A stretch of DNA of 64,000 nt from a bacterium (GTDB lineage: Bacteria; Patescibacteriota; Patescibacteriia; UBA9934), in contig JAQCKO010000005.1 of the NCBI GenBank assembly GCA_027592325.1, positions 202-64,201 on the forward strand, read 5' to 3'. Made by a program: the position numbers and the translations under genes. Under the pieces are notes generated by a model. It was not told the DNA's origin and ran no database searches. It saw nothing but the letters and a program-made list of their open reading frames with translations. Positions 8,814 to 53,011 of this stretch are shown in pieces. Every line of letters starts with the position of its first letter. The stretch's first letter is position 1.

Positions 8814-8920
8814 TAGTACAGCTTACCTCATCTAGCGTCTCAGATCTGCGATACTCGCTCGACGTACGTTCTAGTACGCCTCGCTCTGTTTCTTGATCTT
8901 CACCACCATCTAAAGCAGTC
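8814..8920 (+). repeat. Copy 1 of the intergenic repeat family (plus orientation)
   Basis: TAGTACAGCTTACCTCATCTAGCGTCTCAGATCTGCGATACTCGCTCGACGTACG...TCTAAAGCA aligns base-for-base with the copy at 52400-52510. Confidence 0.8.
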
Positions 8921-8934
8921 TATACGATTCGCTA

Positions 8935-9324
8935 TTAACTCTCATCCAAATACGATTGCAGTATCAACATCGCTGCAAGGGCATCCTCGGGTGCGGTTGC
9001 TCCATACTCTTCTACTAGTCGCCGACTTTCTGCCGTCGTAAATTGCTCATCAACGGTATGAATGGGCATATTGCTCATCCCTTTTAGTTCTTCAATAAAC
9101 CCACGCACCCTCTTTGCCTGCGAGTCATCATGAAAGTCTCCTGCCTCTCCTGGGACACCGATGACGAGTTCATCAATGCCTTCTTCGCGGACAAGATCGA
9201 TAATGCGCTTTGCAAGATCATCGCCGCCTGGAATCACCTCAAGCGGCGTCGCAAGCTTGGTCTCATTATCCCCAAGCGCGAGGCCAACTTTCTTCTCCCC
9301 AAAATCGACTCCTAAATAACGCAT
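8935..9324 (-). CDS. ruvX: Putative pre-16S rRNA nuclease / Holliday-junction-resolvase-like YqgF
   Basis: MRYLGVDFGEKKVGLALGD...ELVIGVP has the RNase H fold. Confidence 0.85.
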   Translation of the reverse strand: MRYLGVDFGEKKVGLALGDNETKLATPLEVIPGGDDLAKRIIDLVREEGIDELVIGVPGEAGDFHDDSQAKRVRGFIEELKGMSNMPIHTVDEQFTTAESRRLVEEYGATAPEDALAAMLILQSYLDES

Positions 9325-9325
9325 A

Positions 9326-9772
9326 TTATTCTACTGGCTCACCAATGAAGACAAAATCTTCGCGCACCACTTCTTCTCCTACAACTCCTGCTCGATCATC
9401 GCTATAATCAAGGACTCCATCACCGTTATCAACGCGGATTAGTGCGGCATAGCTACTCCCAAGCTCCATACGCTCATCAAGATTAATGACAAGATTTTCG
9501 TGCACACCAGGTTCAAGATAGATCGATGCGCCAATTGGCTCAGACGGAGCAATGCTGAGCATGTTATGAATACTCACAAATCCTCCCGCAGAAAGGCTCA
9601 CCGAAGCGATTGCGGTATAACCATCCCCTGCTTGATCAGCAAGAGTGAGAGAGGCAGATTCAAGCATGTTTATGCGTGGTTCTTCCGGACCTGGACCAGA
9701 AAAAAACATCAAGACACCAATAACAATAATGGTAATGAGAGAAAGAATAATAAGGCCGATATCGTGTTTCAT
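9326..9772 (-). CDS. Hypothetical membrane-anchored or secreted protein
   Basis: The start is taken at MKHDIGLIILSLITIIVIGVLMF, which supplies an N-terminal TM segment. The rest has no recognisable domain. Confidence 0.5.
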   Translation of the reverse strand: MKHDIGLIILSLITIIVIGVLMFFSGPGPEEPRINMLESASLTLADQAGDGYTAIASVSLSAGGFVSIHNMLSIAPSEPIGASIYLEPGVHENLVINLDERMELGSSYAALIRVDNGDGVLDYSDDRAGVVGEEVVREDFVFIGEPVE

Positions 9773-9826
9773 ACATTGGAAATATAGCAAATACTTGCGT
9801 TTCTGCACATACTTCATCAACATTAT

Positions 9827-9855
9827 TTGACGCCGCAACATAACCTCGCTAGGAT
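9827..9855 (+). promoter_or_regulatory. Sigma70-like promoter (TTGACG-17-TAGGAT)
   Basis: The -35 element TTGACG is at 9827-9832. A 17-nt spacer separates it from the -10 element TAGGAT at 9850-9855. Confidence 0.4.
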
Positions 9856-9898
9856 TTACGTGTCCCGCAATCCCGCGGGTCATTACCAAGGAGTGCCC

Positions 9899-9991
9899 AT
9901 GAACGGACTCACCTTGTCCAATGCGCCACCCGGCTGGCGCGAGTCCGGAAACATCCACTCCACCCGTTGCCCTGCCAATAACTACGGTTAG
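9899..9991 (+). CDS. Orphan 30-codon ORF with a consensus Shine-Dalgarno (MNGLTLSNAPPGWRESGNIHSTRCPANNYG)
   Basis: AAGGAG at 9888-9893 lies 5 nt before the ATG. The ORF sits in a 360-nt gap between minus-strand genes, bracketed by a plus-strand promoter and terminator. It could instead be a structured sRNA. Confidence 0.35.
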   Translation: MNGLTLSNAPPGWRESGNIHSTRCPANNYG

Positions 9992-10081
9992 TTTTGAGAG
10001 TGCCATCATCGCAACACCCGGCTCGCGTCATGCGCTTGAGCAACATCTAGAGGGTGCCTTCTAAGTAGAAGCGCACCTCGG

Positions 10082-10116
10082 CGCCCTGACCATAGGTTAG
10101 GGCGTTTTCTTTTTTT
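10082..10116 (+). terminator. Strong intrinsic terminator (plus strand)
   Basis: The hairpin cgccctgacc-ata-ggttagggcg is 10 bp with one G:U pair and is followed by TTTTCTTTTTTT. Confidence 0.75.
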
Positions 10117-10134
10117 GACGTAGTAATGAATACC

Positions 10135-10923
10135 CTAAATCTGAACCTCGGGTTGTGGCGTGAGAATCTCGGGACCTTTTTCGGTAATCGCTATCGTTAC
10201 CTCAAAATGCGCTGCATGCTTTCCATCGACAGTCACAATTGTCCAGCCGTCATCGGCTTCCTGTACTTTATGCGTTCCAAGCGTAATCATTGGCTCGATG
10301 GCAATACACATACCGACCGCTAACGTACTGTCGCCAAAACGTTTTGCCCGATAATTGGGAATATTTGGGGGTTCATGCACAGCGTGGCCAACGCCGTGAC
10401 CAACAAGCGCCTTGACAATCCCGTACGTTTTTTGATCGATCGCATCTTCAACAGCGCCCGAGATATCGCTGACCATTTTCCCAGCAATCGCGGCATCCAC
10501 GCCCGCATACATGCTCGCACGCGTATCCCGCATGAGCTTCAGATGCTCTTCACGTACATTCCCAACCGGCACGGTTACCGCCATATCGGTACACAGGTCT
10601 TTATACCAACAGCCAATATCAAGACCAACAATATCGCCTTCCTCTAAGGCAATATCACGTGTTCCAACACCGTGCACAACTTCATGATTACGCGAAATAC
10701 AGACCGTGGAAGGAAATGGAATCTGACCGCCACCCTTATAACCAAGAAATGAGGGCTTCCCGCCGCCCTCTTCAATCACGTTTTTTGCAATTGCATCGAG
10801 CTCATGCATTTTTACGCCAGGCTTCACTAAATCAATTGCCGCCTGTAATGCGCGCGAAAGAAGTGCACCGCCTTCACGCATGTACTGAATGTCTTGTGCT
10901 GTTTTGATATTCGCCATAAGCAT
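10135..10923 (-). CDS. map: Methionine aminopeptidase type I
   Basis: The HGVGHAVHEPP and metal-ligand motifs are present. Confidence 0.9.
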   Translation of the reverse strand: MLMANIKTAQDIQYMREGGALLSRALQAAIDLVKPGVKMHELDAIAKNVIEEGGGKPSFLGYKGGGQIPFPSTVCISRNHEVVHGVGTRDIALEEGDIVGLDIGCWYKDLCTDMAVTVPVGNVREEHLKLMRDTRASMYAGVDAAIAGKMVSDISGAVEDAIDQKTYGIVKALVGHGVGHAVHEPPNIPNYRAKRFGDSTLAVGMCIAIEPMITLGTHKVQEADDGWTIVTVDGKHAAHFEVTIAITEKGPEILTPQPEVQI

Positions 10924-10979
10924 TTGTAGAACCGTTAAGAATAATCGTATGTCGTGGAAAAAGAGAATGAGACAGTGAA

Positions 10980-11537
10980 CTATAGGTCAAGGGCAGCGGC
11001 GATGCGCGCCTGTACCTCTTCAACGGTCCCAAGACCATCAATTTCATGGACAATGCCAAGGTGTTTATATGCTTCAATGACAGGAGCCGTTTTTTCTTCG
11101 CTCCATTGCAATCGTTTCTCGAGCATTTCTGGCGTATCATCACTGCGACCTTCTTTTTCTGCTCGCAACATAATCCGCTTCACAGACTCTTCTTTTGCTG
11201 CGGTGATAACAAGTACATGTGAGGGACTCAGAAATGTTCTCGATGCTTCATACTGTTCAATGAAACGAGGATATCCATCAATAATAAAGCCATGCTTTGC
11301 ATCATCTTTGGCAAGTCGTTGCTTCAGAATATTAGACGTTATTTCGTCAGAAACAAGATTACCCGCATCTTGAATTGCGAGAATCTCTTTTCCAATATCA
11401 CTTCCGGTCGCACCTTCATCACGTAAGAGTTGCCCCATGGAAAGCGCGGGAATACCAAGCTTTTCTGCAATCATATTTGCTTGAGTGCCTTTTCCACTCC
11501 CTTGAGGGCCTAAAATCACAATTTGTTTCATAATCAA
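10980..11537 (-). CDS. adk: Adenylate kinase
   Basis: The P-loop is GPQGSGKGTQ and an LID region is present. Confidence 0.9.
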   Translation of the reverse strand: MIMKQIVILGPQGSGKGTQANMIAEKLGIPALSMGQLLRDEGATGSDIGKEILAIQDAGNLVSDEITSNILKQRLAKDDAKHGFIIDGYPRFIEQYEASRTFLSPSHVLVITAAKEESVKRIMLRAEKEGRSDDTPEMLEKRLQWSEEKTAPVIEAYKHLGIVHEIDGLGTVEEVQARIAAALDL

Positions 11538-11579
11538 TATTCAGCCGCACTATAACAAATTGACGGCTTTCCGCAACCA

Positions 11580-11608
11580 AAAACAGCCCGTATGGGACTG
11601 TTTTTGCC
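11580..11608. terminator. Hairpin with flanking T-runs between secY and adk
   Basis: aaaacagcccgtatgggactgttttt reads as a terminator on both strands. Confidence 0.45.
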
Positions 11609-11619
11609 ATGACTTGTTA

Positions 11620-11699
11620 AACGCCTCATGGCTGCCTTAGATAGTGGTGACGATCGGGGATCGGAGATTGGAGCCGCTAGATGAGGTAGGCTGAGGTGT
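11620..11699 (-). repeat. Copy 2 of the intergenic repeat family (minus orientation, internally shortened)
   Basis: In minus sense it reads CAGCCTACCTCATCTAGCGGCTCCAATCT...TCTAAGGCA, directly after the secY TAA stop. Confidence 0.65.
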
Positions 11700-12944
11700 T
11701 TAAGACTTATCGTATTCGCGCATGGTGACTTGCGCTTCCACCTGCTTCACGATATCAATCACAACTGCCACAATAATGAGAATAGATGCTCCACCGACAA
11801 GAAGACTTTGACTTCCTGTCACTTCCTGCACAACAAGTGGCAATACGGCAATCGCTCCAAGAAAACCTGCTCCAACGAGCAAAATACGATTCTTCACCCA
11901 CTCAAGGTAGGTTGCTGTTTGTGTTCCTGGTCGAATTCCTGGAATGAATCCTCCTTGTTTTTGCAAATTCTCCGCAATTTGTTCCGGCTTGAAGATGACA
12001 CCCGCATAGAAGAAGGTGAATCCGAACACTAATGCAAAGTAAAGGATGGCATAGAAGGCACTGTTCCCAAAGAGTTCAATGACCCATCGCGCCGTATTTT
12101 GAAGGAATTCTGAACGTGCATCTAAGAAGTATTGTGCAATAAGTGGAGGGAAAATCATCACAGAAATCGAGAAGATAATAGGGATCATTCCACCCATGCT
12201 CACGCGTACAGGAAGCACCGAGCTTGACTGCATGCCTGCACCACCACGCGCATACTTGATGGCAATATTGCGCTGCCCTTCATTAACAATCACAACCGAA
12301 ACAATCGTGACGATGGTGAGGGCAATGAAGAGAATGATGTCAAAAAGATCATTTCGTGTGTACGTCGCAAGTGTTTGCTGCACGAAGGTTGGAAATCCTG
12401 CAATAATACCCGCCAGAATGAGAATCGAGATTCCATTTCCGACTCCACGCTCGGTAATCAACTCACCAATCCACATAAGGAACATTGTTCCAGCGGTCAT
12501 TGCGATGAGTGCGGCGACTATTTCAAGCCCTACAAGATCAATACTGACGCCACCTTGTGTGATGAGCGTAAGCACACCGTATCCTTGAACCAGAGCGAGC
12601 GGTACTACCGCGAAGCGCGTCCAGCGATTCAATTTCTGACGACCCTGTTCTTCTTTCTGCATTTCTTCTACGCTTGGGAAAATCATTCCAAGCAGCTGAA
12701 CAATGATTGACGCCGTAATATACGGAGCAACACCGAGCGCCACAACGGAAAGATTCGCTAGCGTTCCGCCAGAGAACACATTCAATAGCCCTAGGAATTG
12801 ATTACCAGCGAGAAGACCTGTGAGGTCCGTCTGGTCAATTCCAGGAATGGTGATATGTGCCGCGAGGCGGAAAATGGTGAGGGCTCCTAGAATAGCTAAA
12901 AGGCTATTACGAAGTTCGGTCATTTTCCAAATTCTCGCTAACAT
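11700..12944 (-). CDS. secY: Preprotein translocase SecY
   Basis: It is a 10-TM protein with conserved SecY motifs. Confidence 0.95.
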   Translation of the reverse strand: MLARIWKMTELRNSLLAILGALTIFRLAAHITIPGIDQTDLTGLLAGNQFLGLLNVFSGGTLANLSVVALGVAPYITASIIVQLLGMIFPSVEEMQKEEQGRQKLNRWTRFAVVPLALVQGYGVLTLITQGGVSIDLVGLEIVAALIAMTAGTMFLMWIGELITERGVGNGISILILAGIIAGFPTFVQQTLATYTRNDLFDIILFIALTIVTIVSVVIVNEGQRNIAIKYARGGAGMQSSSVLPVRVSMGGMIPIIFSISVMIFPPLIAQYFLDARSEFLQNTARWVIELFGNSAFYAILYFALVFGFTFFYAGVIFKPEQIAENLQKQGGFIPGIRPGTQTATYLEWVKNRILLVGAGFLGAIAVLPLVVQEVTGSQSLLVGGASILIIVAVVIDIVKQVEAQVTMREYDKS

Positions 12945-12946
12945 AT

Positions 12947-13384
12947 CTATGCGTTAATCGTTCCGCCCGCAGCAGTGATTTTTTCTGAAGCTGCCTTAGA
13001 AACTTTGCATCCGCTCACTTTGAGAGAAACAGTCACTTCTCCATCTGAGAGGATTTTTACACCATTTTTCTTCGTCGCGATAAGATTTTTCGCTTTAAGC
13101 GTATCCGGGGATACCAATTCCCCCTTCAGAAACACAGCTGCTAAATCACCCACATTTACGGTTGCAGGTTTATTATACGGGGAATTGAATCCGCGGAGCT
13201 TTGGTGTTGCAAGCATAAGCTTACGCATTCCAAGCCGCTGAAATCCGCTTGCACCTGATCGTGATTTTTGTCCCTTCATTCCGCGTCCTGATGTCTTTCC
13301 AAGGGTTGATCCGATTCCGCGTCCAAGGCGTTTTTTTGTCTTTTTTGAGCCGCTTTTTGGGCTCAGATTATGTAATGACAACAT
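12947..13384 (-). CDS. rplO: 50S ribosomal protein L15
   Basis: The sequence is conserved. No L30 gene sits between rpsE and rplO. Confidence 0.9.
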   Translation of the reverse strand: MLSLHNLSPKSGSKKTKKRLGRGIGSTLGKTSGRGMKGQKSRSGASGFQRLGMRKLMLATPKLRGFNSPYNKPATVNVGDLAAVFLKGELVSPDTLKAKNLIATKKNGVKILSDGEVTVSLKVSGCKVSKAASEKITAAGGTINA

Positions 13385-13390
13385 AGGGCG

Positions 13391-14041
13391 TTATTCTGCT
13401 TTTTTGTCAGATGATTTTTGTCCCTTCTTCGCCTTTAGTAAAGGCGCTTCAGATGCCTGTACAGCCTTCGCTGGAGTTTTTACCTGCTTAGGCTTGCTCA
13501 CATTGTTCGTAACATTACGTAGGCCAGATAGTGCATGCATCATTGCCTTCGCATTGTTGATTTTGCTTTTTGAACCAAGAATTTTTGATACAACATTCGG
13601 TACACCAGCAAATTCAAGGACCATACGAGCAGGTCCCCCTGATTTAAGCCCAGTTCCTTTTGGAGCTGGCTTAAGCATCACCTGCGCCGCACCAAATTTC
13701 ATGTCAATTCTGTGCGGGATTGTTTCATTAACAATAGGCACGGTGATAAGATTTTTCTTAGCCTGTCGGAATGCTTTTTCTACTGCTGCCGCTACATCGG
13801 TTCCTTTTGCAACACCCATTCCAACACGTCCTTTTTTATCGCCAATGATAAGACACGTACGAAAACTCATCCGTTTTCCTCCTTTCGTAACACGCGTTAC
13901 ACGAGCAAGTTCCAAAATCTTTTGCTCGAACTCACGCGGTTCACGTTTTTCACGACGACCATTTCCCTTTCGGCGACGTACACGACGCTCACTTGCGCCC
14001 GTGAAGCTTTTATTATCTTGTGTTTTTGTTTCTTCCGGCAT
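13391..14041 (-). CDS. rpsE: 30S ribosomal protein S5, with an R/K-rich N-terminal extension
   Basis: S5 dsRBD and C-terminal domains are present. Confidence 0.9.
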   Translation of the reverse strand: MPEETKTQDNKSFTGASERRVRRRKGNGRREKREPREFEQKILELARVTRVTKGGKRMSFRTCLIIGDKKGRVGMGVAKGTDVAAAVEKAFRQAKKNLITVPIVNETIPHRIDMKFGAAQVMLKPAPKGTGLKSGGPARMVLEFAGVPNVVSKILGSKSKINNAKAMMHALSGLRNVTNNVSKPKQVKTPAKAVQASEAPLLKAKKGQKSSDKKAE

Positions 14042-14043
14042 AT

Positions 14044-14406: not shown

Positions 14407-14411
14407 AGAGA

Positions 14412-15351: not shown

Positions 15352-15355
15352 ATGC

Positions 15356-15541: not shown

Positions 15542-15543
15542 AT

Positions 15544-28371: not shown

Positions 28372-28505
28372 AGTCTTATAGATAATATGTCTGGAATCTT
28401 CCCGCCGTAGTATGCGGTACTCCAGACGTTAATAGAGCTGTTAGCTGATAGCATTTAGTCGTTAGCCGAGGCTAATAGCTAATTGCTAACCGCTAATAGC
28501 TTTCG

Positions 28506-28925: not shown

Positions 28926-29321
28926 AAAGATGGCCGAAAATTATCATAAACAAGATTTTTGGTCAAGGGGATTTGGTTGCTAGAGGTGGGAGGTTTGAGG
29001 TTGGAGGTTTGGGGTATGAAGAATATGGTTACAAGCACGAAAAACGCATCCTTCCGGGCTTGACCCAGAATCCATCGTTTTTCACTCGTTTGAATAGATC
29101 TTCCGCTATGCTCCCGCCTTCGCTCTTTGAGCTTCGGACGGGCAAGCTAGAATGCAAATTCCCTGACGAATGTGAGGGATCTACTCGAAATACCCGCACG
29201 TCAGTCGATGACCGCACCCTCCCCTTAGCCCCCGTCCGTCCAACGAAGGACGTCGCGGGGGATTGTCATTAATGACCAATTAAATACCAAGCTTCATTCC
29301 GCTTTTCACAAAGGAGGCTCT

Positions 29322-38121: not shown

Positions 38122-38443
38122 ACGTGGCGGCGCTGTGCGTATCTATGTCCAGCAACCGCACGTTGGAGGCCCGGGCCGTGATGAGGTGGATCCAATCGTA
38201 GCGCAAATAGCGGTCTACCTACGCCCTCGAACACGCCATCCGGCGCCGGTTCGGGGGCGTGTTTCGTTTTGGTTATTTGTAGAATGGAAAAAGTAGACAG
38301 TAGAAAGTGATAAAAGCGCACCGTAGTACGCTTTTATCATCCTGATCGAGCCTTTGGAGAGCTGAAGGATCTATTCGAATCGAGAGATTGCCACGTCGTT
38401 CACTACGTTCACTCCTCACAATGACAATTTGATATGTCCGAAT

Positions 38444-38569
38444 CAAAGAACGCCTCAGATTGCTTTAGATGCAGGTGCGCCCGCGAGCACCGAAATGTGC
38501 CGTACTGAGCGTACGGTGAATAAGGCGCGGAGCTGCAAGCCTGCAGATGAAATAATCTGAGGCGTCCTA
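38444..38569 (-). repeat. Copy 3 of the intergenic repeat family (divergent), enclosed in a 13-bp inverted repeat
   Basis: The element starts at the leuS TAG stop. In minus sense it reads TAGGACGCCTCAGATT...CATCTGCAGGCTTGCAGCTCCGCG.... The outer inverted repeat is gacgcctcagatt / aatctgaggcgtc. Confidence 0.55.
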
Positions 38570-41557
38570 AACGACAAAGTTCACCAGCTTGTCTGGGACA
38601 AAAATAACCTTCTTCACCTCCCCTTCAAGATACTTCGCCACATGTTCTTCCGCGCGTGCGGCTGCTTCTACCTTCGCTTGATTTGACCCAGCATCCATTT
38701 CAAGTGTTGCGCGTAATTTTCCATTCACCTGCACAGCGATGGTTACTACATCGTCTTTTGTAAGCTCCTCGCTGAATTCCGGCCAGCTGAGCGATTCTAA
38801 AATCTCGTTTCCACCGGTTTTTTCATAGAGCTCATTCGCCACATGCGGCGCAAATGGAACAAGCGTGCGCAAGAACGTATGAAGTGAATCTTTCGAAACC
38901 GATTTTGCCTTATGAAGCTCATTCACATAACTCATCATGGCTGCAACGGCGGTATTGAATGACATTGATTCAATATCAGTGTTGACTTTTTTGAGCATTT
39001 TGTGAAGGGCCGAAGTCAGCTCTTTCGATGCATCATTCGCGATGAATTCCTCAAGGCGCATTACGCGGTCTAAAAATCGCTTTACTCCCATTACCCCATT
39101 TTCACTCCAAGGCGCCGGCTCGGAGAATGGCCCCAAGAAAAGCTCGTACATGCGAAGCGTATCAGCCCCAAAATTCGTGACGATGTCATCAGGATTCACC
39201 ACATTCCCCTTGCTCTTGCTCATTTTCGATCCATCCTCAGCAAGAATAAGCCCGTGACTTCGGCGCGAATGATACGGTTCAGAAACCGGCACATGCCCGC
39301 GATCATGCAGGAATTTATTCCAGAAGCGTGAGTACAAAAGGTGAAGCGTTGTATGCTCCATTCCGCCATTATAAAGATTCACCGGCATCCAGTACTTGAG
39401 CGCCTCTTCACTCGCAAATGCCTCGCTATTGTGCGGATCGGTATAGCGAAGGAAATACCAGCTGGATCCTGCCCAGTTTGGCATGGTATCGGTTTCGCGC
39501 TTCGCTGGACCACCACAAGACGGACATTCGGTATTCACCCAGTCATTAATCGCTGCGAGCGGTGATTCTCCATCATCGGTTGGAAGATATGCATCAATTT
39601 CAGGAAGCACAACCGGTAGCTGGTCGTCAGGAATCGGCACCCAATCACACGCTTCACAGTGAACAAGAGGAATCGGCTCTCCCCAGTAGCGCTGGCGCGA
39701 GAATACCCAATCCCGAAGCTTATACGTCGTCGCCTTTTCTCCTTTGCCAAGCTCTTCGAGCTTGCTGGTAATCCCAGCAATACCTTCTGCGACCGTCATA
39801 CGATCGAATGCACCCGAGTTCACAAGTTTGCCGTCTTTTGCAATAAAGGCTTCATGATCAAGATTAGCCTCATCACCATCAACCACCTGCTTCACCGGCA
39901 AATCATATTTCTTCGCAAAGGCAAAGTCGCGCTCATCATGCGCAGGAACGGCCATCACCGCGCCAGTTCCATAATTCATGAGCACATAATCGGCAACCCA
40001 AATTGGCACATATTCCCCAGTAAGAGGATGCTTGGCATAGGCCCCAGTGAATACGCCGGTTTTTTCTTTCGCGGCATCGCCACGCTCGATATCGGTTTTC
40101 TTTGCCGATGCTTCAATATACGTCTCAACATCCGCGCTCTGCTCATCCGTCGCAAGCTGAAGCGCAAGCGGATGTTCTGGTGCGAGGACCATATAGGTGA
40201 CACCGTAAAGCGTATCAGGACGCGTGGTGAAGACTTCGATTGTCGGCTGAAGGGCATCAAGAAGCGCCACACGATAATCCTCAAGCTCGACGCGGGTTTC
40301 TTCCTCCGTCTGCTCCTTGGGGTACTTTCCAGTTTTTCTATTGATATACAACGAACGAATAGGGAAAAATTCATCCACTGGTTCATGCACCTTGGTCGAC
40401 AGCTGAATGGGTCGCTTACATTCTGTCACCTTTTCTGTTCCATCAGGAAAAATACAAACAAAGACATCATGCCAATGTCCCTCAATAACACCGCCACGCG
40501 CTTCGGCAAGCCCTTTGTAATGCGCGAGCATACGATCGGCAATTTCTCGCTGCGAAAGCGCTGCCTCCTCTTCCTCGGTGACAACGCTCCTTCGCACTTC
40601 AGCCGGGTCCATATCAACCCCTTCGAGTACAAAGGCGGAGTCCATCCCGAGCACCGGAACATCTACATTTCCAGCGTACACCTGTGCCTTCATGCGTGCA
40701 TTTTCAACTAAATCACTTCCCTCATTCACCTCATGCGAATGCATCCCATAATCAACTGCCTCGCGAAGCGCAATATTGCTCCCCTCGCAAACAAAACGAT
40801 TCCGCTCGAGCTTTGCCTCATTTCCCGTCGCCACGAGAACTTCCCGTACCTCACCAAGATCAAATCGAATTTTTGCTCCTTCACTACGCCCAATCCAGTC
40901 TACCTGCTGCTTGGCAATTTTCGGAAGAAAATCGACGGTTTCAAGATCATCAATAAGCCGATCGGCAAATTTAGTAATCGCAATCATCCACTGTTCTTTT
41001 TCGCGCATTTCAACCTCTCCCCCGCAACGTTCGCACGCAGCATTCACCACCTCTTCATTTGCAAGCCCAATTTTGCATGACGTACACCAATTAATCGCTA
41101 TCGTATCTTTATACGCGAGCCCAGCTTTGAAGAACTCTAAAAATTGCCACTGCGTCCATTTGTAATACGCGGGGTCGGTGGTATTCACTTCGCGCGACCA
41201 ATCGAACGAAAGTCCGAGACTTTTGAGCTGACGCCGGAAATTATCGATATTCTCCTTAGTCACGTCTTGCGGCTTCCGGCCCGTTTTGATGGCATAATTC
41301 TCGGTTGGAAGACCAAAGGCATCCCATCCGATTGGATAGAGCACATTATATCCCTCCATGCGGCGCTTACGCGCGATCACGTCAAGCGCGGTATAGCTGC
41401 GCGGATGCCCAACGTGAAGACCTGCTCCAGATGGGAATGGAAATTCAACCAGCAAATAATACGGGTCTTTTTTCGAATCGTTCTTAGCTTCGAAGATTTT
41501 TGCCTCTTCCCAAGTTTTTTGCCATTTTTTATCAATATCGCTGTGATTGTAGCTCAT
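38567..41557 (-). CDS. leuS: Leucyl-tRNA synthetase
   Basis: The HMGH-like motif (GLHVGHPRSY), KMSKS, and the editing and anticodon-binding domains are present. The start is taken at MSYNHSDIDKKWQKTW. The track ORF extends 45 codons further upstream. Confidence 0.9.
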   Translation of the reverse strand: MSYNHSDIDKKWQKTWEEAKIFEAKNDSKKDPYYLLVEFPFPSGAGLHVGHPRSYTALDVIARKRRMEGYNVLYPIGWDAFGLPTENYAIKTGRKPQDVTKENIDNFRRQLKSLGLSFDWSREVNTTDPAYYKWTQWQFLEFFKAGLAYKDTIAINWCTSCKIGLANEEVVNAACERCGGEVEMREKEQWMIAITKFADRLIDDLETVDFLPKIAKQQVDWIGRSEGAKIRFDLGEVREVLVATGNEAKLERNRFVCEGSNIALREAVDYGMHSHEVNEGSDLVENARMKAQVYAGNVDVPVLGMDSAFVLEGVDMDPAEVRRSVVTEEEEAALSQREIADRMLAHYKGLAEARGGVIEGHWHDVFVCIFPDGTEKVTECKRPIQLSTKVHEPVDEFFPIRSLYINRKTGKYPKEQTEEETRVELEDYRVALLDALQPTIEVFTTRPDTLYGVTYMVLAPEHPLALQLATDEQSADVETYIEASAKKTDIERGDAAKEKTGVFTGAYAKHPLTGEYVPIWVADYVLMNYGTGAVMAVPAHDERDFAFAKKYDLPVKQVVDGDEANLDHEAFIAKDGKLVNSGAFDRMTVAEGIAGITSKLEELGKGEKATTYKLRDWVFSRQRYWGEPIPLVHCEACDWVPIPDDQLPVVLPEIDAYLPTDDGESPLAAINDWVNTECPSCGGPAKRETDTMPNWAGSSWYFLRYTDPHNSEAFASEEALKYWMPVNLYNGGMEHTTLHLLYSRFWNKFLHDRGHVPVSEPYHSRRSHGLILAEDGSKMSKSKGNVVNPDDIVTNFGADTLRMYELFLGPFSEPAPWSENGVMGVKRFLDRVMRLEEFIANDASKELTSALHKMLKKVNTDIESMSFNTAVAAMMSYVNELHKAKSVSKDSLHTFLRTLVPFAPHVANELYEKTGGNEILESLSWPEFSEELTKDDVVTIAVQVNGKLRATLEMDAGSNQAKVEAAARAEEHVAKYLEGEVKKVIFVPDKLVNFVV

Positions 41558-41574
41558 ACTTCTGCTCAAATAAG

Positions 41575-41592
41575 ATAGCGCTACTGTAGCGC
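41575..41592. promoter_or_regulatory. Perfect 7-1-7 palindrome GCGCTAC-T-GTAGCGC about 20 nt upstream of the leuS start
   Basis: The operator-like dyad lies between candidate -35 and -10 elements. Confidence 0.35.
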
Positions 41593-41911
41593 GCTCATTG
41601 ACGTTCTGTAAAGGATTTCGCACCCTTTCTTTCGCAAAGGAGGTGCCCATGCGGTACTTGAACCCAAGGAATGTCCTTGAGGACTTTCCCATATGGCTGA
41701 TCGATGAATGGGGGATTGCTCATCATTGTTATCGCAATTGCCCTCATCGCATATAATTTCGCGATGCTGAAGTATTCAAAGATTGAACGCAGGTTCAACC
41801 TTCAGGCGCACCGGTGCTTTCGTACTGGTGTCGTCACGCTCCCGTTCACGGTAGACATGTTCATGCTCGCCTTGTGGAGCATCGCGCGCCGTATGGTGAC
41901 GCGCATCTTGC

Positions 41912-41945: not shown

Positions 41946-42340
41946 GCGTGAGCAGCGAATCCATATTGGATCGGGGCCTTCCAGGTTCCGCAATAAGCTT
42001 CATCTAGCGCTACACTTGCATTCCATGCAAGGACGCGTCCAAGACGTATCGATTACTCTACGGAGTACTCAGTGTTCATATATGACTTGACGTGTTTTTC
42101 TCTGGCGTATAGGCTTCTTGCAGATATGTACGCATTTGTATATACAAACTGGTTTTTCCACCGTGCTCGATTTTATCGAGCAACTTGAGGTTATCCGCGC
42201 ACATATCTTTAAAAGACCAATTGATATTTGCCCGGATAGGGCATTTTTTCATTCTATGAGACAGCAATCACCACAATATTGGCATGGCTTTCGACGTTCT
42301 TTTAGGCGCCGGTAGCTTAGTTTTTGAGATGAATGTCGAA

Positions 42341-42375
42341 AAACGAGCTGCTAAGGCTCGTTTTTCTTCGGTCAT
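42341..42375 (+). terminator. Strong intrinsic terminator (plus) upstream of the real start of the 42425 gene
   Basis: The hairpin aaaaacgagc-tgctaag-gctcgttttt has an 11-bp stem and is followed by CTTC. Confidence 0.6.
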
Positions 42376-45762: not shown

Positions 45763-45832
45763 AGGGGGAGTTAGGAATTTGGAGTTGGGAGTTGGGGTTT
45801 GTGGGTCAGGTCCAGGTTGGAGTTTCATTACG

Positions 45833-45905
45833 GTGTACTTGCTGGTACATGAACGAGCAACGCACATTTAAGCCTGCAAATGCGGTGAGCCGTGACGTTT
45901 TCCTA
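45833..45905 (-). repeat. Copy 4 of the intergenic repeat family
   Basis: The element starts at the trxB TAG stop. In minus sense it reads TAGGAAAACGTCACGGCTCACCGCATTTGCAGGCTTAAATGTGCGTTGCTCGTTCATGTACCAGCAAGTAC. Confidence 0.8.
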
Positions 45906-46832: not shown

Positions 46833-46833
46833 A

Positions 46834-47142: not shown

Positions 47143-47255
47143 AGATTATTTCATGTTTTTAACGTTATAGCATAAGACGCTTGTACGATGTAGGGAAGGA
47201 TACAAAGTATCGTGATTCATGAATGAGGTGTATGGGTTAAGGTTTGGATCTCGAT

Positions 47256-47290
47256 TAAAAGAATCCCCCGCATGTTTGCGAGGGGTTCTT
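47256..47290. terminator. Bulged hairpin with flanking T-runs between infB and trxA
   Basis: tcccccgca-tgtt-tgcgagggg is followed by ttctttttcg. Confidence 0.5.
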
Positions 47291-47432
47291 TTTCGAGCTG
47301 AGCACCAGAGTTGTCAACGGATAGGTTATCGCTATTTTTGTGGAAAGTGAAGGTCTCTCTACCGTGGACCGACGGGGTTTCGACATGTCCCTCCGAAGCT
47401 CTGCAAGAGCGTAGGGAGAAAAAGCGAAGTGG

Positions 47433-47507
47433 GAAGCTGACTTTCTGGTACATTGAGCGAGCACCGCAGATTTAGCCTGCAAATGTAGTGAGCTGTGCCG
47501 TCTCCTA
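47433..47507 (-). repeat. Copy 5 of the intergenic repeat family
   Basis: The element starts at the infB TAG stop. In minus sense it reads TAGGAGACGGCACAGCTCACTACATTTGCAGGCTAAATCTGCGGTGCTCGCTCAATGTACCAGAAAGTCAGC. Confidence 0.8.
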
Positions 47508-49529
47508 CAAATTCTTCGCTCCATGTACCTCGAGCGTTCGCTCCTTCACTTCCTCCGTGTAGAATTCAAGTACATCTCCCACTTCAATCTTCGCCTTTCC
47601 TGCAAGTTCCATCCCAAATTGTGTTCCTTGCTGCACTTCTTTCACATCCACTTTTCCAGCCTGAAGCCCAATCACTTTTCCTTCCGCTAAAATCTCGCCC
47701 GCACGCGTCACACGAGCTGTTGCACCAAGCTGAATGACGCCTTTTTTCACCTGACCACCAATCACCATGCCCTTTACGGTTTTCTTAAAAACCGCAAGCA
47801 CCTCGGCTGTTCCAAGCTCGATGTACACATGTTCTGCGGGAATCAGCAGGCGTAGCTTGTCAACAACATCTTCAAACAACTTATAAATGACGTTGTACGA
47901 ATGAATTGAAATATTCTTATCGCGCGCAAGTGACTCTGCCGCACTCGTCGCCTTGACATTGAAGGCAATGAGCATAGCTCCTGTTGCTTCCGCATTTAAG
48001 ACCTCTGCATCATTCACATTTCCAAGCCCTTTTTGCACCACTTTTGCTCCAACGTATGGGTTGTCGATTTTTTCAACCATTCCGAGAATCGCTTCAAGTG
48101 ATCCTAGCACATCCGATTTAATAATGAGGTTCAGTGTAATACGTTCCTTCTCCGTATCTTCATCTTGCGATTTCACCTGCTTTGTTACAGAAACATCATT
48201 CACCCCTGCTTTGCGCGTTGGTTGTGATTTGAGTTTTTCGAGATTCTTGACGTCTTCAGGAACCTCAAGCACATCTCCGACCGAAGGTGCTTCTTTGAAG
48301 CCTAAAATACGCACAGGTGTTGATGGCGCTGCCTCATTTGCATCTTGTCCATCCCATGTCTTCATGGCGCGTACTTTTCCAAAATTGACTGCACGTACAC
48401 CAAGCACATCTCCGCGTTTCAATGTACCTGTTTGCACCAAAACAGTCGCAACTGGCCCCTGCCCTTTGTCGACATGCGATTCGATAATCGTTCCAATCGC
48501 GCGGCGATGTGGATCGGCAACAATTGTCTCCTTTTCCATATCAGCAACAAGAATAAGCATGTCGAGCAGCTGATCAACATGCTGACCTGTTTTCGCTGAA
48601 ACAGGTACACAAATGGTTTTTCCACCCCAATCTTCTGGAACAAGTCCGTGTTCACCAAGCTGTCCTTTTACCATCTCGGCATTTGCGCCTTCTTTATCAA
48701 TTTTGTTAATCGCAACAACAAACGGAAGGCCTGCTGCCTTAATAATATCGATTGCCTCGCGCGTTTGCGGTTGAATTCCATCATCAGCAGCAACGACTAA
48801 GATCGCAATATCAGCAACTTTTGCTCCGCGCGATCGCATCACCGTAAAGGCTTCGTGACCAGGAGTGTCGATGAATGTCAAAAGACGATCGTTGCGTACC
48901 GCTTGATACGCCCCAATATGCTGTGTGATTCCCCCATGCTCACCAGAAACGACATTCGCGCTTCTGATCGTATCGAGGAGCAATGTTTTTCCATGATCAA
49001 CATGGCCCATGACAACAATCACCGGCGGCCGTGCCTCACGAATCGCCCCTTCTTCAGAAAGCGCTTCTTCCAATCGATCAACACCATCTTCATCCTTTAA
49101 CGATTCTGCGCCTTCAATTTCCGTAATATACCCAAGATCTTCCGCGATGATTGTCGCCGTCTCGAAATCAATCCGTTCATTCAAACTGGCAAGCACTCCT
49201 GCACGCATCAGCTCTTTCATTACATCAGAAAGGGACATATTCAAGCGTTCAGCAAATTCACGCACCGTAAGCGTTTGTGGGATGCTGATCTTCTCTGCGG
49301 TTCCGTCTTGCACGCGTTTTTTACGATCGAGACGTGCCTGCTGCTCAACTTTTTTGCGCTGCAAATCTTGACGATGCTTGTACTGACGCCATGCATATTG
49401 CACGCGTCCCACATCGCGATCGGGAATTTTGAGCGCTTTTTCTCCAATATCAAACCCAAGCAGCGGAAGCTTAGAGCGTAGCTCGTCTGGCGAAACGCGC
49501 ATTCGGCGCGCAAGTTCGGAAATATTCAT
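47505..49529 (-). CDS. infB: Translation initiation factor IF-2
   Basis: The G domain ([17 protein letters not shown]) and the C-terminal domains are present. Confidence 0.95.
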   Translation of the reverse strand: MNISELARRMRVSPDELRSKLPLLGFDIGEKALKIPDRDVGRVQYAWRQYKHRQDLQRKKVEQQARLDRKKRVQDGTAEKISIPQTLTVREFAERLNMSLSDVMKELMRAGVLASLNERIDFETATIIAEDLGYITEIEGAESLKDEDGVDRLEEALSEEGAIREARPPVIVVMGHVDHGKTLLLDTIRSANVVSGEHGGITQHIGAYQAVRNDRLLTFIDTPGHEAFTVMRSRGAKVADIAILVVAADDGIQPQTREAIDIIKAAGLPFVVAINKIDKEGANAEMVKGQLGEHGLVPEDWGGKTICVPVSAKTGQHVDQLLDMLILVADMEKETIVADPHRRAIGTIIESHVDKGQGPVATVLVQTGTLKRGDVLGVRAVNFGKVRAMKTWDGQDANEAAPSTPVRILGFKEAPSVGDVLEVPEDVKNLEKLKSQPTRKAGVNDVSVTKQVKSQDEDTEKERITLNLIIKSDVLGSLEAILGMVEKIDNPYVGAKVVQKGLGNVNDAEVLNAEATGAMLIAFNVKATSAAESLARDKNISIHSYNVIYKLFEDVVDKLRLLIPAEHVYIELGTAEVLAVFKKTVKGMVIGGQVKKGVIQLGATARVTRAGEILAEGKVIGLQAGKVDVKEVQQGTQFGMELAGKAKIEVGDVLEFYTEEVKERTLEVHGAKNL

Positions 49530-49703
49530 GGGCGCAGACTACCGTTTTTCAGGCTTTTTGGCAAGTTTTGTCGCATTCATGCATTGGTACATCTTCCATA
49601 CCTGCAAGATCGGCCAAGCAACCCAGCATCGGGATGCGTCGCTAGGTGCAATAAGCCGAAGTAACTTGCTTTTTTGCTTCAAAACCATATACGCTGCCAG
49701 CAT

Positions 49704-50411
49704 ATGGAACAAAAAGAAGGCTTTCTTCTCATCAATAAGCCCGCTGGGATTACCTCGCATGATGTCGTCGACAAGCTGCGAAAAATTATCGGGATTAAGA
49801 AAATCGGTCATGCCGGCACGCTCGACCCCTTTGCAACCGGCCTTCTTTTAATGGCGATTGGACGTGGCGCAACAAAGCGTATTTCTGAATTCGTTGGCCT
49901 TCCGAAAACCTACCGAGCAACGTTTGTGCTCGGCGAGACAACCGAAACCCTCGACACAGAAAAAGAAGTTGTTCAAGACCCAAACTGGAATAACCTCGTT
50001 ATTTCAGACGATCATATCAATGAGGCAATCACCGGTATGATTGGCCCCTCAAAACAAATCCCACCAATGTATTCCGCGATCAAAAAAGGCGGAAAAAAAC
50101 TCTATGAACTCGCGCGAGAAGGGAAAGAAATTGTCCGCGACGCTCGCCCTATTACGATTCATCGCTTTCAATTACTTCAGCCGGCAAAGCGATTTAAAGA
50201 ACGCATTGAGCTTGAGGTTGAGCTTTCTGTTTCCTCGGGAACGTATGTTCGCGCAATCGCACGCGATCTTGCTGAAAAACTCGGTACCACAGGCTACACA
50301 TCTGTCCTTCACCGCACGGCGATAGATCAGTATTCAATCGATCGCGCAATCAATCTACAAGAACTTACATCCGATAATTGGCATTTAGGCCTATTTGAGC
50401 CACAAAATTGA
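49704..50411 (+). CDS. truB: tRNA pseudouridine(55) synthase
   Basis: HAGTLDPFATGLL contains the catalytic Asp. Confidence 0.9.
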   Translation: MEQKEGFLLINKPAGITSHDVVDKLRKIIGIKKIGHAGTLDPFATGLLLMAIGRGATKRISEFVGLPKTYRATFVLGETTETLDTEKEVVQDPNWNNLVISDDHINEAITGMIGPSKQIPPMYSAIKKGGKKLYELAREGKEIVRDARPITIHRFQLLQPAKRFKERIELEVELSVSSGTYVRAIARDLAEKLGTTGYTSVLHRTAIDQYSIDRAINLQELTSDNWHLGLFEPQN

Positions 50412-50494
50412 CGCTCATTTCACGCGCATGCTAGGCTTTTTACAATCGGAATTTTTCGATTGTACTTGTTTGATTTACTGGTAGCCATCGATCT

Positions 50495-52015
50495 ATGACA
50501 ATCTCAATACTTATCATTGGCCTCTTTATTGGAGGGGCATCTGGATACTTTGGACGCAAATACGCGACAAAAGACAAAATCGCTTCGGCAGAAAAGCACG
50601 CTGATGAACTTCTTCAATCAGCAAAACAGGAAAAGTCGGAACTCATTCTCGCAGCAAAAGAAGAAGCGCTAAAGCTAAAAGAAGCGGCAAAAGAGGTAGA
50701 ATCTGAAACACGAAACGAACTAAAAGAGATGGAACGCACGCTTCGCAGCCGCGAAGAGCGTTTTGCAGCTCAATTATTAGAATTGCAAAAAAAGCAAGAT
50801 ACCATCGATAAAACCGCTCGCGAGGCAGAAGCCCTCCGACTTACATTAAAAGAAGAACGTGACGAAATCCGAATAACCTTGGAAATGGTTGCTGGACTTT
50901 CCACTGAGGAGGCACTCAAATCCCTCGAAGATACCGTCGAACAGGAATATCAAGAAGCGCTGCTTTCACGCGTCAAAAAGCTTGAACGACAAAATGAGGA
51001 AGCCGTTGAGGCAGAGGCGCGAAAGATCCTTGCCCTCGCGATGCAGCGCTTTGCAAGCTCGCAATCTGTTGATCACTCCACGACCATGGTCGAGCTTCCG
51101 AGCGACGACATGAAAGGGCGGATCATTGGAAAAGAAGGTCGGAACATCAAGGCACTTGAGCGGCTTACGGGCTGTGAGCTTATTGTCGATGACACACCTG
51201 GCATGATTATGGTGAGCGGATTTTCTCCCGTGAGGCGTCAGGTCGCCAGACTTGCCATTGAGGACTTAGTGAAAGATGGACGCATTCAACCAGCGCGCAT
51301 TGAGGCCGCGATTGAAAAAGCAAAGAAAGATCTCGCCAAAGATATGCGGAAAGCTGGAGAAGAAGCGCTCATGGAACTTGGTATCCCCGTTTCATCTATC
51401 GATCCCAAACTGATTTCTATTCTAGGCCGACTAAAATTCCGCACAAGCTATGGACAGAATGTTCTGCAGCACTCAATCGAAGTTGCGCGTATTTCTGGGA
51501 TGATTGCTGCAGAAATTGGGGCTGATGTTTTCAATTGTAAAAAAGGAGGATTGTTCCATGACATTGGAAAAGCTGTTGACCACGATATGCAAGGAGCGCA
51601 TCCTGAAATCGGCTACAATATTATGAAGAAATTCGGTTTCCCTGAAGAGCTTTGTTATCAGTCTATTGCTCATCATGAAGATAAACCGCGCACACTAGAA
51701 GGTACCATTGTAAAAGCTGCCGACGCTATTAGCGGAGCGCGTCCAGGAGCACGCCGAAATTCCATCGAGGAATATATTCAGCGTCTTGAAAACCTTGAAA
51801 AAACAGCAAATGAATTTGAGGGCGTGGAAAAAGCGTATGCGATTCAAGCTGGCCGCGAAGTGCGCGTATTTGTGCACCCACAAAAGGTTGATGATTATGG
51901 CGCGCACAAATTGGCGAATATGATTGCGAAGAAAATTGAAAACGATCTCACCTACCCGGGAGAGGTAAAAGTGACCATTATTCGCGAGACACGTATTTCA
52001 GAATTTGCCCGTTAA
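50495..52015 (+). CDS. rny: Ribonuclease Y
   Basis: It has an N-terminal TM segment, a coiled coil, a KH domain (GRIIGKEGRNIKALE) and an HD domain. Confidence 0.9.
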   Translation: MTISILIIGLFIGGASGYFGRKYATKDKIASAEKHADELLQSAKQEKSELILAAKEEALKLKEAAKEVESETRNELKEMERTLRSREERFAAQLLELQKKQDTIDKTAREAEALRLTLKEERDEIRITLEMVAGLSTEEALKSLEDTVEQEYQEALLSRVKKLERQNEEAVEAEARKILALAMQRFASSQSVDHSTTMVELPSDDMKGRIIGKEGRNIKALERLTGCELIVDDTPGMIMVSGFSPVRRQVARLAIEDLVKDGRIQPARIEAAIEKAKKDLAKDMRKAGEEALMELGIPVSSIDPKLISILGRLKFRTSYGQNVLQHSIEVARISGMIAAEIGADVFNCKKGGLFHDIGKAVDHDMQGAHPEIGYNIMKKFGFPEELCYQSIAHHEDKPRTLEGTIVKAADAISGARPGARRNSIEEYIQRLENLEKTANEFEGVEKAYAIQAGREVRVFVHPQKVDDYGAHKLANMIAKKIENDLTYPGEVKVTIIRETRISEFAR

Positions 52016-52080
52016 CCCACAGGGATAATTGTAATTATTCGGAAGATTGGTAAAATACCTGAAATTTTTGTCAAAGAAAT

Positions 52081-52395
52081 ATGAATAAAGCAATACTCGC
52101 CCTCCGCATTGCTGAACATCTTGGAATACAGAAGAAAGAAGCTGAAGCATTTATTGCTGCTTTTCAGCAGATTACCACAGAAACACTCGGAAACAACGAA
52201 GATGTTACCATCGCCGGCTTTGGGACATTTTCAAGTCGTGTACGTTCTGCACGCCGCGGTGTGAACCCTCGAAACCCATCAGAAATGATTGACGTACCAG
52301 CAGTTAAGGTTCCAAAATTCAAAGCTGGTAAAGCCCTCAAGGATTCCCTGAAGGCGAGTATGAAGGGGTCAAGCGGTGAGGTGGAGCTTAGTTAG
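52081..52395 (+). CDS. hup: HU family DNA-binding protein
   Basis: GFGTFSSRVRSARRGVNPRN marks the arm region. Confidence 0.85.
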   Translation: MNKAILALRIAEHLGIQKKEAEAFIAAFQQITTETLGNNEDVTIAGFGTFSSRVRSARRGVNPRNPSEMIDVPAVKVPKFKAGKALKDSLKASMKGSSGEVELS

Positions 52396-52399
52396 TGCG

Positions 52400-52510
52400 T
52401 AGAAAACAGAACAGCTTCCCTCATCTAGCGGCTCGAATCTGTGATACTCGCTCAACGTTCGCTTAAGTATGTCTTGTTTCGTTTCTCGGTTTTTATCGCT
52501 GTCTAAGGCA
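52400..52510 (+). repeat. Copy 6 of the intergenic repeat family (plus orientation)
   Basis: TAGAAAACAGAACAGCTTCCCTCATCTAGCGGCTCGAATCTGTGATACTCGCTCAACGTTCGC...TCTAAGGCA starts 4 nt after the hup stop. Confidence 0.8.
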
Positions 52511-52844
52511 ATATGTGCTCTTCAAGCTGAAAGTTTCGTCTGGTATTGCTTATCATCCTGAGCGAGCAAAGCGAGTTGAAGGATCTATGCGAACATGACG
52601 AAACACGTGAAAACGCCCGCGAGTCCTTGGCTCGCGGGCGTTGCGTTTAGGGGTGAGGATGAGGTGAGGCTACTCCTTCAAGAAGAGGTCGAGGATGAAT
52701 TCGACCTGTCCCAGGACAGTAGCATCGCTACCGTCGCGGAGTTCATCGACAATCGTCCTCTTTACTGCATAGCGACAAGCTATTCCACCTATGTGTATAT
52801 TCTCTGTCAACCAAAAAGAACGGTCAAAGCCGCTCGTTTACTCG

Positions 52845-52885
52845 CTGGATTCCGGGTCAAGCCCGGAATGACGATTTGTTTAGAT
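52845..52885. repeat. REP-like hairpin (aatgacg family), copy R3
   Basis: attccggg-tcaa-gcccggaat plus gacg. Confidence 0.6.
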
Positions 52886-52892
52886 AAGAGGA

Positions 52893-53011
52893 CCGCTCAG
52901 ATTGCCTGAGATGACGGTGCAATTCGAGGACCAAAGTGAGGCGTACTTTCTGGTACGTTGAACGAGGACCGGAGAATTAAGCCGTCAGATTAGGTAAGCT
53001 GTGCGGTCCTA
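52893..53011 (-). repeat. Copy 7 of the intergenic repeat family
   Basis: The element starts at the proS TAG stop. In minus sense it reads TAGGACCGCACAGCTTACCTAATCTGACGGCTTAATTCTCCGGTCCTCGTTCAACGTACCAGAAAGTACGCCTCAC...CATCTCAGGCAATCT. Confidence 0.8.

Follow-up and report, generated by a model that had tools for sequence, protein, structure and literature searches.

The DNA analysed here, hereafter the window, is a 64-kb stretch of a bacterial contig that carries recO, ruvX, secY, adk, leuS (1041 aa), gdh, trxB, trx, infB, proS, hup, and rny, all confirmed by Pfam. It corresponds to the reverse complement of bases 4034-68033 of an 82,852-bp metagenome scaffold (ENA ERZ23495042, MEHR18-1_SAMN03444948_METAG-scaffold_479). 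In a collection of 5.8 billion proteins, no other protein exceeds 69% identity to its prolyl-tRNA synthetase (ProRS), and the named neighbours belong to Candidatus Uhrbacteria (Patescibacteria, or candidate phyla radiation, CPR). Interspersed in the window are eight copies of a palindromic element, which together amount to 830 nt or ~1.3% of the 64 kb. Positions below refer to the window unless a locus label such as L002 or L087 is given, and R1 and R2 denote covariance models of the element.

Eight copies of one element in the window

The initial annotation had proposed seven homologous copies, and these indeed form one family. The family emerges from a repeat scan, and a nhmmer profile built from the seven recovers all of them with E values from 1e-32 to 4e-12 and finds no other significant match. 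R1 and R2 recover the same seven (E 5e-34 to 5e-08), and a degenerate 33-nt core pattern matches four copies compared with 0 matches in 100 shuffles. The eighth copy, close to two tRNA genes, was added by the covariance model. In the next 10 kb of the contig past the window start, a covariance-model scan finds no copy. The copies in the window are:

52892-53014, minus strand: full-length copy, the best preserved (R2 130.6 bits, E 5e-34); its first bases are the proS stop TAG (53009-53011)
38450-38572, minus strand: full-length copy (R2 104.4 bits) that starts with the leuS stop TAG (38567-38569) and has an outer stem of 15 bp
52399-52521, plus strand: full-length but decaying copy after hup (R2 101.5 bits; 25 of 34 pairs Watson-Crick)
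8806-8928, plus strand: full-length decaying copy, antisense to both neighbours (R2 104.5 bits; mirror match at 8813-8935 on the minus strand, E 5e-05)
11621-11706, minus strand: internally deleted copy with both arms and no apical part (R2 58.4 bits, E 8e-13); its start is the secY stop TAA (11700-11702)
45829-45905, minus strand: 5' half only (nhmmer E 1.9e-15, R2 45.8 bits), starting with the trxB stop TAG (45903-45905)
47406-47508, minus strand: 5' half only, with the homologous part at ~47433-47507 (nhmmer E 7e-17, R2 42 bits), starting with the infB stop TAG (47505-47507)
2941-3038, minus strand: short copy of 98 nt (R1 E 1.3e-07; R2 72.5 bits, E 6e-17; DNA fold z -3.8)

The copies differ in preservation. 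The proS copy has 33 Watson-Crick pairs out of the 34 in the model and an apical GTAC-loop-GTAC stem at ~52942-52957, and its fold reaches -44.3 kcal/mol as RNA (z -5.05) and z values of -2.8 and -4.5 for the two DNA strands. The leuS copy folds at -59.3 kcal/mol as RNA (z -6.2) and the internally deleted secY copy at -21.3 kcal/mol (z -2.9). The copy after hup folds no better than shuffled sequences, and the copy at 8806-8928 has a z of +1.35. The latter is embedded between two minus-strand genes identified by Pfam, ruvX (8935-9324) and recO (8018-8788); the ruvX TAA is 7 nt from its 3' foot, and the minus strand reads TAA-TAG. The trxB half-copy occupies the entire 74-nt trxB-gdh spacer, up to the gdh start at 45828. 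The short copy at 2941-3038 is located between the divergent genes for tRNA-Leu (2582-2668, minus strand) and tRNA-Met (3045-3121, plus strand), with its foot ~11 nt from the 5' end of tRNA-Met, and has no upstream coding gene. This same copy, together with an identical histidine kinase, is found in the metagenome-assembled genome (MAG) GCA_027621985.1. All window copies are singletons except for the inverted pair 52399/52892, whose members are 370 nt apart.

The two half-copies at 45829-45905 and 47433-47507 are mutual closest relatives: they are 84% identical over 31 nt, share CATTTGCAGGCT, and both end just past the apical stem. This suggests duplication of a single truncated copy or the existence of a half-element subfamily.

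Some similar sequences are not members of the family. A covariance-model match at 28429-28501 (22 bits) corresponds to a different imperfect palindrome in the rpsL-rpsG spacer, which is rich in GCTATTAGC and GCTAAC motifs. The possible fragments annotated earlier near 62232 and 62345 are located at 62303 (GGAATAGTAC) and 62210 (GCAATAGTAC) and do not belong to the element, as they reach only E 0.47 with nhmmer and have no covariance-model match. With one mismatch allowed, the 10-mer of these fragments has 13 matches compared with 7.7 expected, weakly above chance. In total, GGAATAGTAC occurs twice and GCAATAGTAC once, at 8810-8819, 62210-62219, and 62303-62312. The minus-strand form GTACTATTCC is present at two sites that precede the start codons of recO and rpmF by 10-25 nt and may be a -10-like promoter motif.

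Each intact copy is one irregular hairpin

The defining feature of the family, which the initial annotation had missed, is that each intact copy forms a single irregular hairpin of 98-123 nt with five helices. RNAalifold, the program recommended by the initial annotation, predicts 34 pairs in these five helices from five window copies, 15 of them with compensatory changes. In the R2 alignment (26 matches, of which three are mirror matches, one is a duplicate, and four are weak), standard pairs occupy 90.3% of cells, compared with 31-39% if the partners are slid by 1-3 columns. Compensatory double changes occur at 33 of the 34 pairs, and the observed values are reached by 0 of 500 shuffles. The alignment was fitted by the model, which biases these figures towards the structure, but the margin is very large.

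Conservation is highest at the centre, UCUGCGG..CUCGCUCAAC-GUAC-loop-GUAC-GUCUCGCUUU..CCUCGA, and includes two symmetric pyrimidine-rich internal loops, CAUCU/AUCUA and CUCGCU/CUCGCU. These mismatched loops are retained in nearly all copies. In contrast, the outer 8-15 bp vary between copies, even within one genome, yet pairing is kept. This is illustrated by the proS and leuS copies (52892 and 38450): among their 34 pairs, 22 are identical, nine are compensated on both sides, and two carry one-sided changes. Among the mismatches, G.U (23) and A.C (29) show no RNA-type bias, and both strands of the two best copies fold well as DNA.

Two further ideas about the stem were rejected. A.C mismatches become G.U on the transcribed strand in the 8806 copy but not in those of 11621, L002, and L087, hence without a consistent trend. 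Likewise, the outer stem is not a host terminator with the element inserted in its loop, since the outer stems are related to each other (G/A-R-A-C-G-Y-C) and separate terminator-like hairpins follow downstream.

Copies abut stop codons and tRNA genes

Counting all genomes, 14 of the ~23 distinct copies follow a coding gene in sense. The upstream genes are leuS, trxB, infB, proS, hup, secY, ychF, rpsF, smpB, tpiA, recJ, an rnhA-like gene, a second hup, and tsf. The foot of the hairpin either encloses the stop codon or is 0-7 nt away from it, with the exception of the second hup copy (L085), where it lies 15 nt downstream. Within the window, what the initial annotation said about stop codons is correct to the base. 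The stop TAGs of leuS, trxB, infB, and proS are the first bases of their copies; after hup, the element's own TAG (52400-52402) comes 4 nt behind that of the gene (52393-52395), and the secY TAA directly abuts its copy. Both orientations relative to neighbouring genes occur, as had been noted, but among the seven copies known at that point only 8806-8928(+) is antisense.

The proposed association with TAG is real and is also seen in other genomes. The 14 genes end in TAG eleven times, in TAA three times, and never in TGA, compared with a background of 41 TAA, 18 TAG (25%), and 13 TGA in 72 window genes; a binomial estimate for this excess is ~4e-5, assuming a similar stop background in the other genomes. 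In many copies, the TAG at the 5' foot is what ends the preceding reading frame. Copies that follow no coding gene (8806 and 12090-12212 of L097) have a TAG at this foot as well, and in this subfamily it is therefore part of the element. The base preceding TAG in ~14 copies is G (5), T (3), C (2), or A (4), and the G or AG of TAG is usually paired.

Other copies adjoin tRNA genes. The L002 copy lies 2 nt past a CCA end, and three antisense copies (2941, L088, and L089) precede a tRNA 5' end by 5-11 nt. We see no consistent target-site duplication: the 5' flank is TA, the 3' flanks are AA, TT, TC, TC, CC, and TG, and a TA...TA reading of the flanks is possible only for 11621 and L047. Recoding after UAG by an element of the selenocysteine or pyrrolysine insertion sequence (SECIS/PYLIS) type was also considered and rejected, as readthrough of the proS TAG stops after seven codons (by eye) and copies are also found beside tRNAs and in antisense.

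Separate terminator-like hairpins lie downstream

In the window, five of the six sense copies are followed by a separate terminator-like hairpin, the trxB half-copy being the exception:

38308-38339, minus strand: terminator-like hairpin ~110 nt downstream of the leuS copy
47265-47284, minus strand: terminator-like hairpin downstream of the infB half-copy
52818-52835, minus strand: terminator-like hairpin downstream of the proS copy
52613-52647, plus strand: G+C-rich hairpin ACGCCCGCGAG-loop-CTCGCGGGCGT followed by TGCGTTT, downstream of the hup copy; by eye the hup terminator
11580-11605 (approximate), minus strand: terminator-like hairpin AAAAACAGTCCC-loop-GGGCTGTTTT between the secY copy and adk

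The element itself has no U-tract, with a T fraction of 0.32 in the 12 nt past the hairpin compared with 0.27 in the background. Since terminator-like hairpins are found farther downstream and no U-rich flank follows the copies, the element resides within the 3' untranslated region (3'-UTR) and is not itself a terminator. Together with the lack of a G.U preference, this speaks against the transcript 3'-end role first suggested for it. Elsewhere in the window, three bidirectional intrinsic terminators share a common AAAAACGAGC-loop-GCTCGTTTTT (7054-7080, 42339-42365, and 62415-62441).

Distribution in related genomes

Outside the window, the core pattern matched nine Joint Genome Institute (JGI) metagenome contigs, eight with clear members of the family and one by chance. 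One of the organisms behind these contigs is also Uhrbacteria-like and has three copies in a 21-kb stretch of its DNA. Among the 80 loci of other Patescibacteria that were listed (ProRS identity at most 61%), one contains a clear member, the L002 copy directly after a tRNA in Uhrbacteria UBA11717, and four weak members occur in L047, L021 (two), and L062. The two weak matches in L021, a Staskawiczbacteria MAG, are adjacent and inverted at 4965-5060(-) and 5062-5168(+), with E values of 1e-4 and 3e-3, between divergent genes; if real, the pair would be a REPIN-like doublet. On short metagenome contigs, copies are found at the contig ends.

No copy is present in the syntenic proS-hup-infB-trx-trxB loci of six relatives (L003, L020, L023, and L094-L096), and the window copies thus represent lineage-specific insertions. 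The initial annotation had asked whether orthologous genes end differently where the element is absent. In the six copy-free relatives, gene ends differ by no more than 1-2 residues, TAA is the usual stop, and an ordinary terminator hairpin follows at once. The core retains ~80% identity (by eye) between organisms with 36% identity in their HU proteins, which points to horizontal spread or very strong constraint.

In L097, a second Uhrbacteria-like genome, a unit of element plus terminator occurs twice in direct orientation (11071-11260 and 12090-12270). Between them lies a 248-aa gene on the minus strand that by eye resembles a lytic-transglycosylase lipoprotein. Their terminators are ~90% identical by eye; the hairpins differ, and the apical stem is fully exchanged.

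Searches of broader collections returned no match: neither a scan, with a degenerate core of 31 nt, of one genome per species (GTDB representatives, a set that contains neither the source organism nor close kin of it), nor searches of viral contigs and of a plasmid collection (by BLAST for plasmids). At gathering thresholds, Rfam 15 reports only five tRNAs in the window, and none of these, by ARAGORN and Rfam, overlaps a copy. Even at E<=10, nothing in Rfam overlaps the hup or proS copy, and the leuS copy has only a sub-threshold antisense chance match (E 0.01), in line with the initial annotation, which had not recognised a named element. A full-text search of the literature found no report on such repeats in CPR or Patescibacteria.

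Other palindromes and gene calls

Further palindromes are found close to copies of the element. Just downstream of the hup copy, a second small palindrome, ATCCTGAGCGAGCAAAGCGAGTTGAAGGAT, is located at 52555-52584(+) and contains AGCGAG twice, the complement of the CUCGCU motif; a 76% inverted match to it at 2776-2816 adjoins the 2941 copy. A third palindrome, GGATTCYGGGTCAAGCCCGGAAKG, occurs twice (0 expected), at 52847-52870(+) just downstream of the proS copy and at 29050-29073(-).

Two called open reading frames (ORFs) in these regions look spurious. The 104-aa ORF at 52595-52909(+) contains the terminator-like hairpin 52613-52647 and a GGATTCCGGG repeat, has no Pfam match, and has inverted element copies on both sides. 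The 126-aa ORF at 2547-2927(-) overlaps tRNA-Leu. LeuS (38567-41692, minus strand) is unusually long and harbours an insert at residues 286-377 with a weak Pfam match to Ham1p_like (E 4e-4).

Comparison with known repeat systems

The closest precedent is provided by the repetitive extragenic palindromic (REP) sequences with a GTAG tag and their REP-associated tyrosine transposases (RAYT or TnpA-REP; HUH Y1 type). In GTAG-tagged REPs, the terminal TAG is frequently the stop codon of the flanking ORF, and the phyla recorded there with GTAG repeats do not include CPR bacteria (PMC3733652). The element shares with them the occurrence as high-copy extragenic hairpins near or overlapping gene ends, the 5'-foot tag with TAG, the lack of a target-site duplication, the patchy presence among related genomes, and termini that supply TAG (here in 11 of 14 cases). 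However, REPs are single stem-loops of 20-40 nt, whereas the element has 98-123 nt, five helices, and conserved internal loops. In addition, its tag is NTAG, with G before TAG in five of ~14 copies and its G or AG usually paired, compared with the unpaired GTAG (GTRG) of REPs. The copies are mostly singletons and do not form inverted dimers or clusters of the REPIN or bacterial interspersed mosaic element (BIME) type, apart from the weak adjacent inverted pair in L021. Finally, gene calls over ~73 kb of the 82.9-kb contig include no RAYT/Y1_Tnp gene. Since REP size, the unpaired GTAG, dimers, and an associated RAYT are not established, we do not file the element as a REP.

In length, whole-length hairpin, intergenic position, co-transcription, and the occurrence of truncated and internally deleted variants, the element resembles Correia (NEMIS/CREE), RUP, and ERIC/IRU repeats, which are 100-170 nt long and similar to miniature inverted-repeat transposable elements (MITEs). 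Such repeats can be targets of RNase III or RNase E and alter mRNA stability. Correia and RUP elements are flanked by a TA target-site duplication and end in conserved terminal inverted repeats; the element has neither. It also has no sequence similarity to Correia, RUP, or ERIC/IRU, and no parent insertion sequence (IS) appears in the ~73 kb of gene calls.

The coincidence of a repeat boundary with an upstream stop codon is known from the mycobacterial interspersed repetitive units (MIRUs). These lie inside operons, are oriented with transcription, and overlap the stop and start codons of the flanking genes with their ends. Unlike the element, they are tandem direct-repeat units with small ORFs and do not form hairpins. 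Integron attC sites, in turn, are imperfect palindromes downstream of genes in which structure is more conserved than sequence and unpaired bases are conserved, and they share with the element a presumed recognition as single-stranded DNA. In attC, however, the outer R boxes are conserved and the centre is variable, the reverse of what we observe. Moreover, the neighbours of the element are core housekeeping genes and tRNAs rather than cassettes, there is no integrase, and no attC cores (RYYYAAC / GTTRRRY) are seen at the element ends by inspection. Taken together, the family is previously undescribed, but of a known kind, as represented by REP, ERIC, Correia, and RUP.

A mobile palindromic repeat as the favoured interpretation

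We favour, with a probability of roughly 0.6, the interpretation that the copies constitute a non-coding, non-autonomous family of interspersed palindromic repeats, similar to REPs and MITEs. It probably multiplied in this Uhrbacteria-like lineage of the Patescibacteria and is patchy in others. The patchy, lineage-specific presence, the high local density, the truncated and decaying copies, the occurrence in both orientations, the unrelated flanking genes, and the absence of a G.U bias all fit a selfish palindromic repeat. The mobility part of the earlier MITE proposal fits the patchy distribution, but the TA/TAG target preference is not accompanied by a TA/TAG target-site duplication. Further, the conserved core with its asymmetric loops and the kept pairing suggest that the hairpin is recognised on one strand.

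The propagation machinery would accordingly read the hairpin together with its loops. By analogy to REP-RAYT and IS200/IS605, the most likely candidate is an HUH/Y1-type single-strand-DNA enzyme, which would insert copies beside the short 5' tag without generating a target-site duplication. This mobilising enzyme is something we purely infer. Its recognition requirement would keep the structure intact in diverging copy lineages, and insertions would persist mainly where they are harmless, that is, right after a stop codon or beside tRNA genes. Once inserted, copies would be co-transcribed and might secondarily affect mRNA processing.

Several observations weigh against a mobile repeat. In the gene calls with Pfam hits over the ~73 kb mentioned above, there is no transposase of any kind, and we found no empty-site polymorphism. 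The ends of the element are its least conserved part and the centre its most conserved, which is the reverse of terminal inverted repeats recognised by transposases. Compensated differences among the copies of one genome are not produced by simple copy-and-decay, and in the two copies of L087 the outer stem reaches 10 nt into the coding sequence of its particular locus. The L088, L089, and L002 copies lack the TAG. Moreover, the window offers 181 intergenic TAG sites compared with 18 TAG stops; insertion after any harmless TAG is thus insufficient to explain why half of the copies use a stop, and the use of stops is far above this expectation.

The most serious competitor, which we nevertheless regard as doubtful, is a host-serving cis-acting RNA module in the 3'-UTR that acts as a barrier to 3'-exonucleases, as a processing site for RNase III or RNase Y, or by slowing ribosome release, and thereby tunes the upstream gene. 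It would be compatible with a mobile origin. The 14 sense copies with the stop codon at or inside the foot of the stem agree with it, as do the five sense copies of the window that precede a terminator-like hairpin and hence are transcribed with their gene. Covariation is strong, the internal loops are conserved and strand-asymmetric, and near-perfect hairpins are kept despite 25-30% sequence divergence in one genome. Genes for both RNases are present in the window (RNase III, 60591-61283; RNase Y, 50495-52015); RNase III cleaves transcribed Correia elements, and E. coli REPs within ~15 nt of a stop codon reportedly stall ribosomes. Selection on RNA should, however, favour G.U over A.C mismatches, and no such preference is present. 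One antisense copy is placed inside the ruvX-recO pair and three more just upstream of tRNA genes, the whole 3' arm is lost in two window copies, six relatives have the same gene ends without copies, and a U-tract is absent. Among the features expected of a functional RNA, covarying helices are therefore present, but a fixed orientation (8806, 2941, L088, and L089 are antisense) and conservation at orthologous loci are not. A secondary role at the RNA level is plausible; the evidence does not favour it as the primary explanation.

Less likely again, we consider that a dedicated Patescibacteria protein might read a conserved structured module, RNA or single-stranded DNA, whose foot encloses the stop codon. 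In one version, a device in the 3'-UTR would link termination at UAG to the processing or decay of the mRNA; in the other, a single-strand transposon of a new class, guided by the hairpin, would be directed to stop codons and tRNA gene boundaries and would restore its outer stem from the flank. The idea is kept alive by the compensated changes within genomes, the stems that copy coding sequence, the excess of stop codons, and the double units of L097. The first two of these, and a core more conserved than the host proteins, fit either version. A site acting at the DNA level, that is, a cruciform or single-strand hairpin for a nucleoid, topology, or replication protein whose palindrome is kept and extended by template-switch correction during replication, appears improbable. 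BIMEs bind integration host factor (IHF) and gyrase, and such a site would agree with the folding of both DNA strands, the equal frequency of G.U and A.C mismatches, the compensated changes between copies of one genome, and the locus-variable outer stem that stays paired, with a 3' arm in L087 that copies 10 nt of the upstream coding sequence. But template-switch correction alone would erase the mismatched internal loops that nearly all copies keep, the TAG bias and the tight abutment to stop codons are left unexplained, and, also counting against it, we know of no binding protein for the element.

Independently transcribed small-RNA genes are very improbable. The conserved structured core and a -10-like AATAGT at the 5' edge of the 8806 copy would suit them, whereas most copies begin at an upstream stop codon, where a promoter has no space, promoter-like sites are no more frequent than expected (21 compared with 22.3), some copies are truncated, and no terminator is found at the 3' foot. 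Virtually no weight remains for chance likeness or for a known IS or tRNA-derived element, the outcomes that the initial annotation had named as its own refutation, or for an integron attC element. E values reach down to 1e-34 and the core pattern is absent from shuffles, the only tRNAs detected by ARAGORN and Rfam are the five ordinary ones away from the copies, and attC cores by inspection, plasmid matches, and viral matches are all lacking, and the copies sit among housekeeping genes.

Implications

For genome annotation, the covariance model is ready to be applied to such genomes and helps to avoid false gene calls, and the repeats help to explain assembly breaks at these sites. The genomes of CPR bacteria are very small and streamlined and are generally regarded as poor in repetitive DNA. 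Here, a hairpin repeat takes up ~1.3% of 64 kb of mostly housekeeping sequence in a CPR genome and sits exactly on the stop codons of the essential genes leuS, infB, and proS. The family extends TAG-donating palindromic repeats from REPs of the Proteobacteria type to a far larger hairpin in a distant lineage, and its partner enzyme, if found, could be a new protein that recognises hairpins of single-stranded DNA or RNA.

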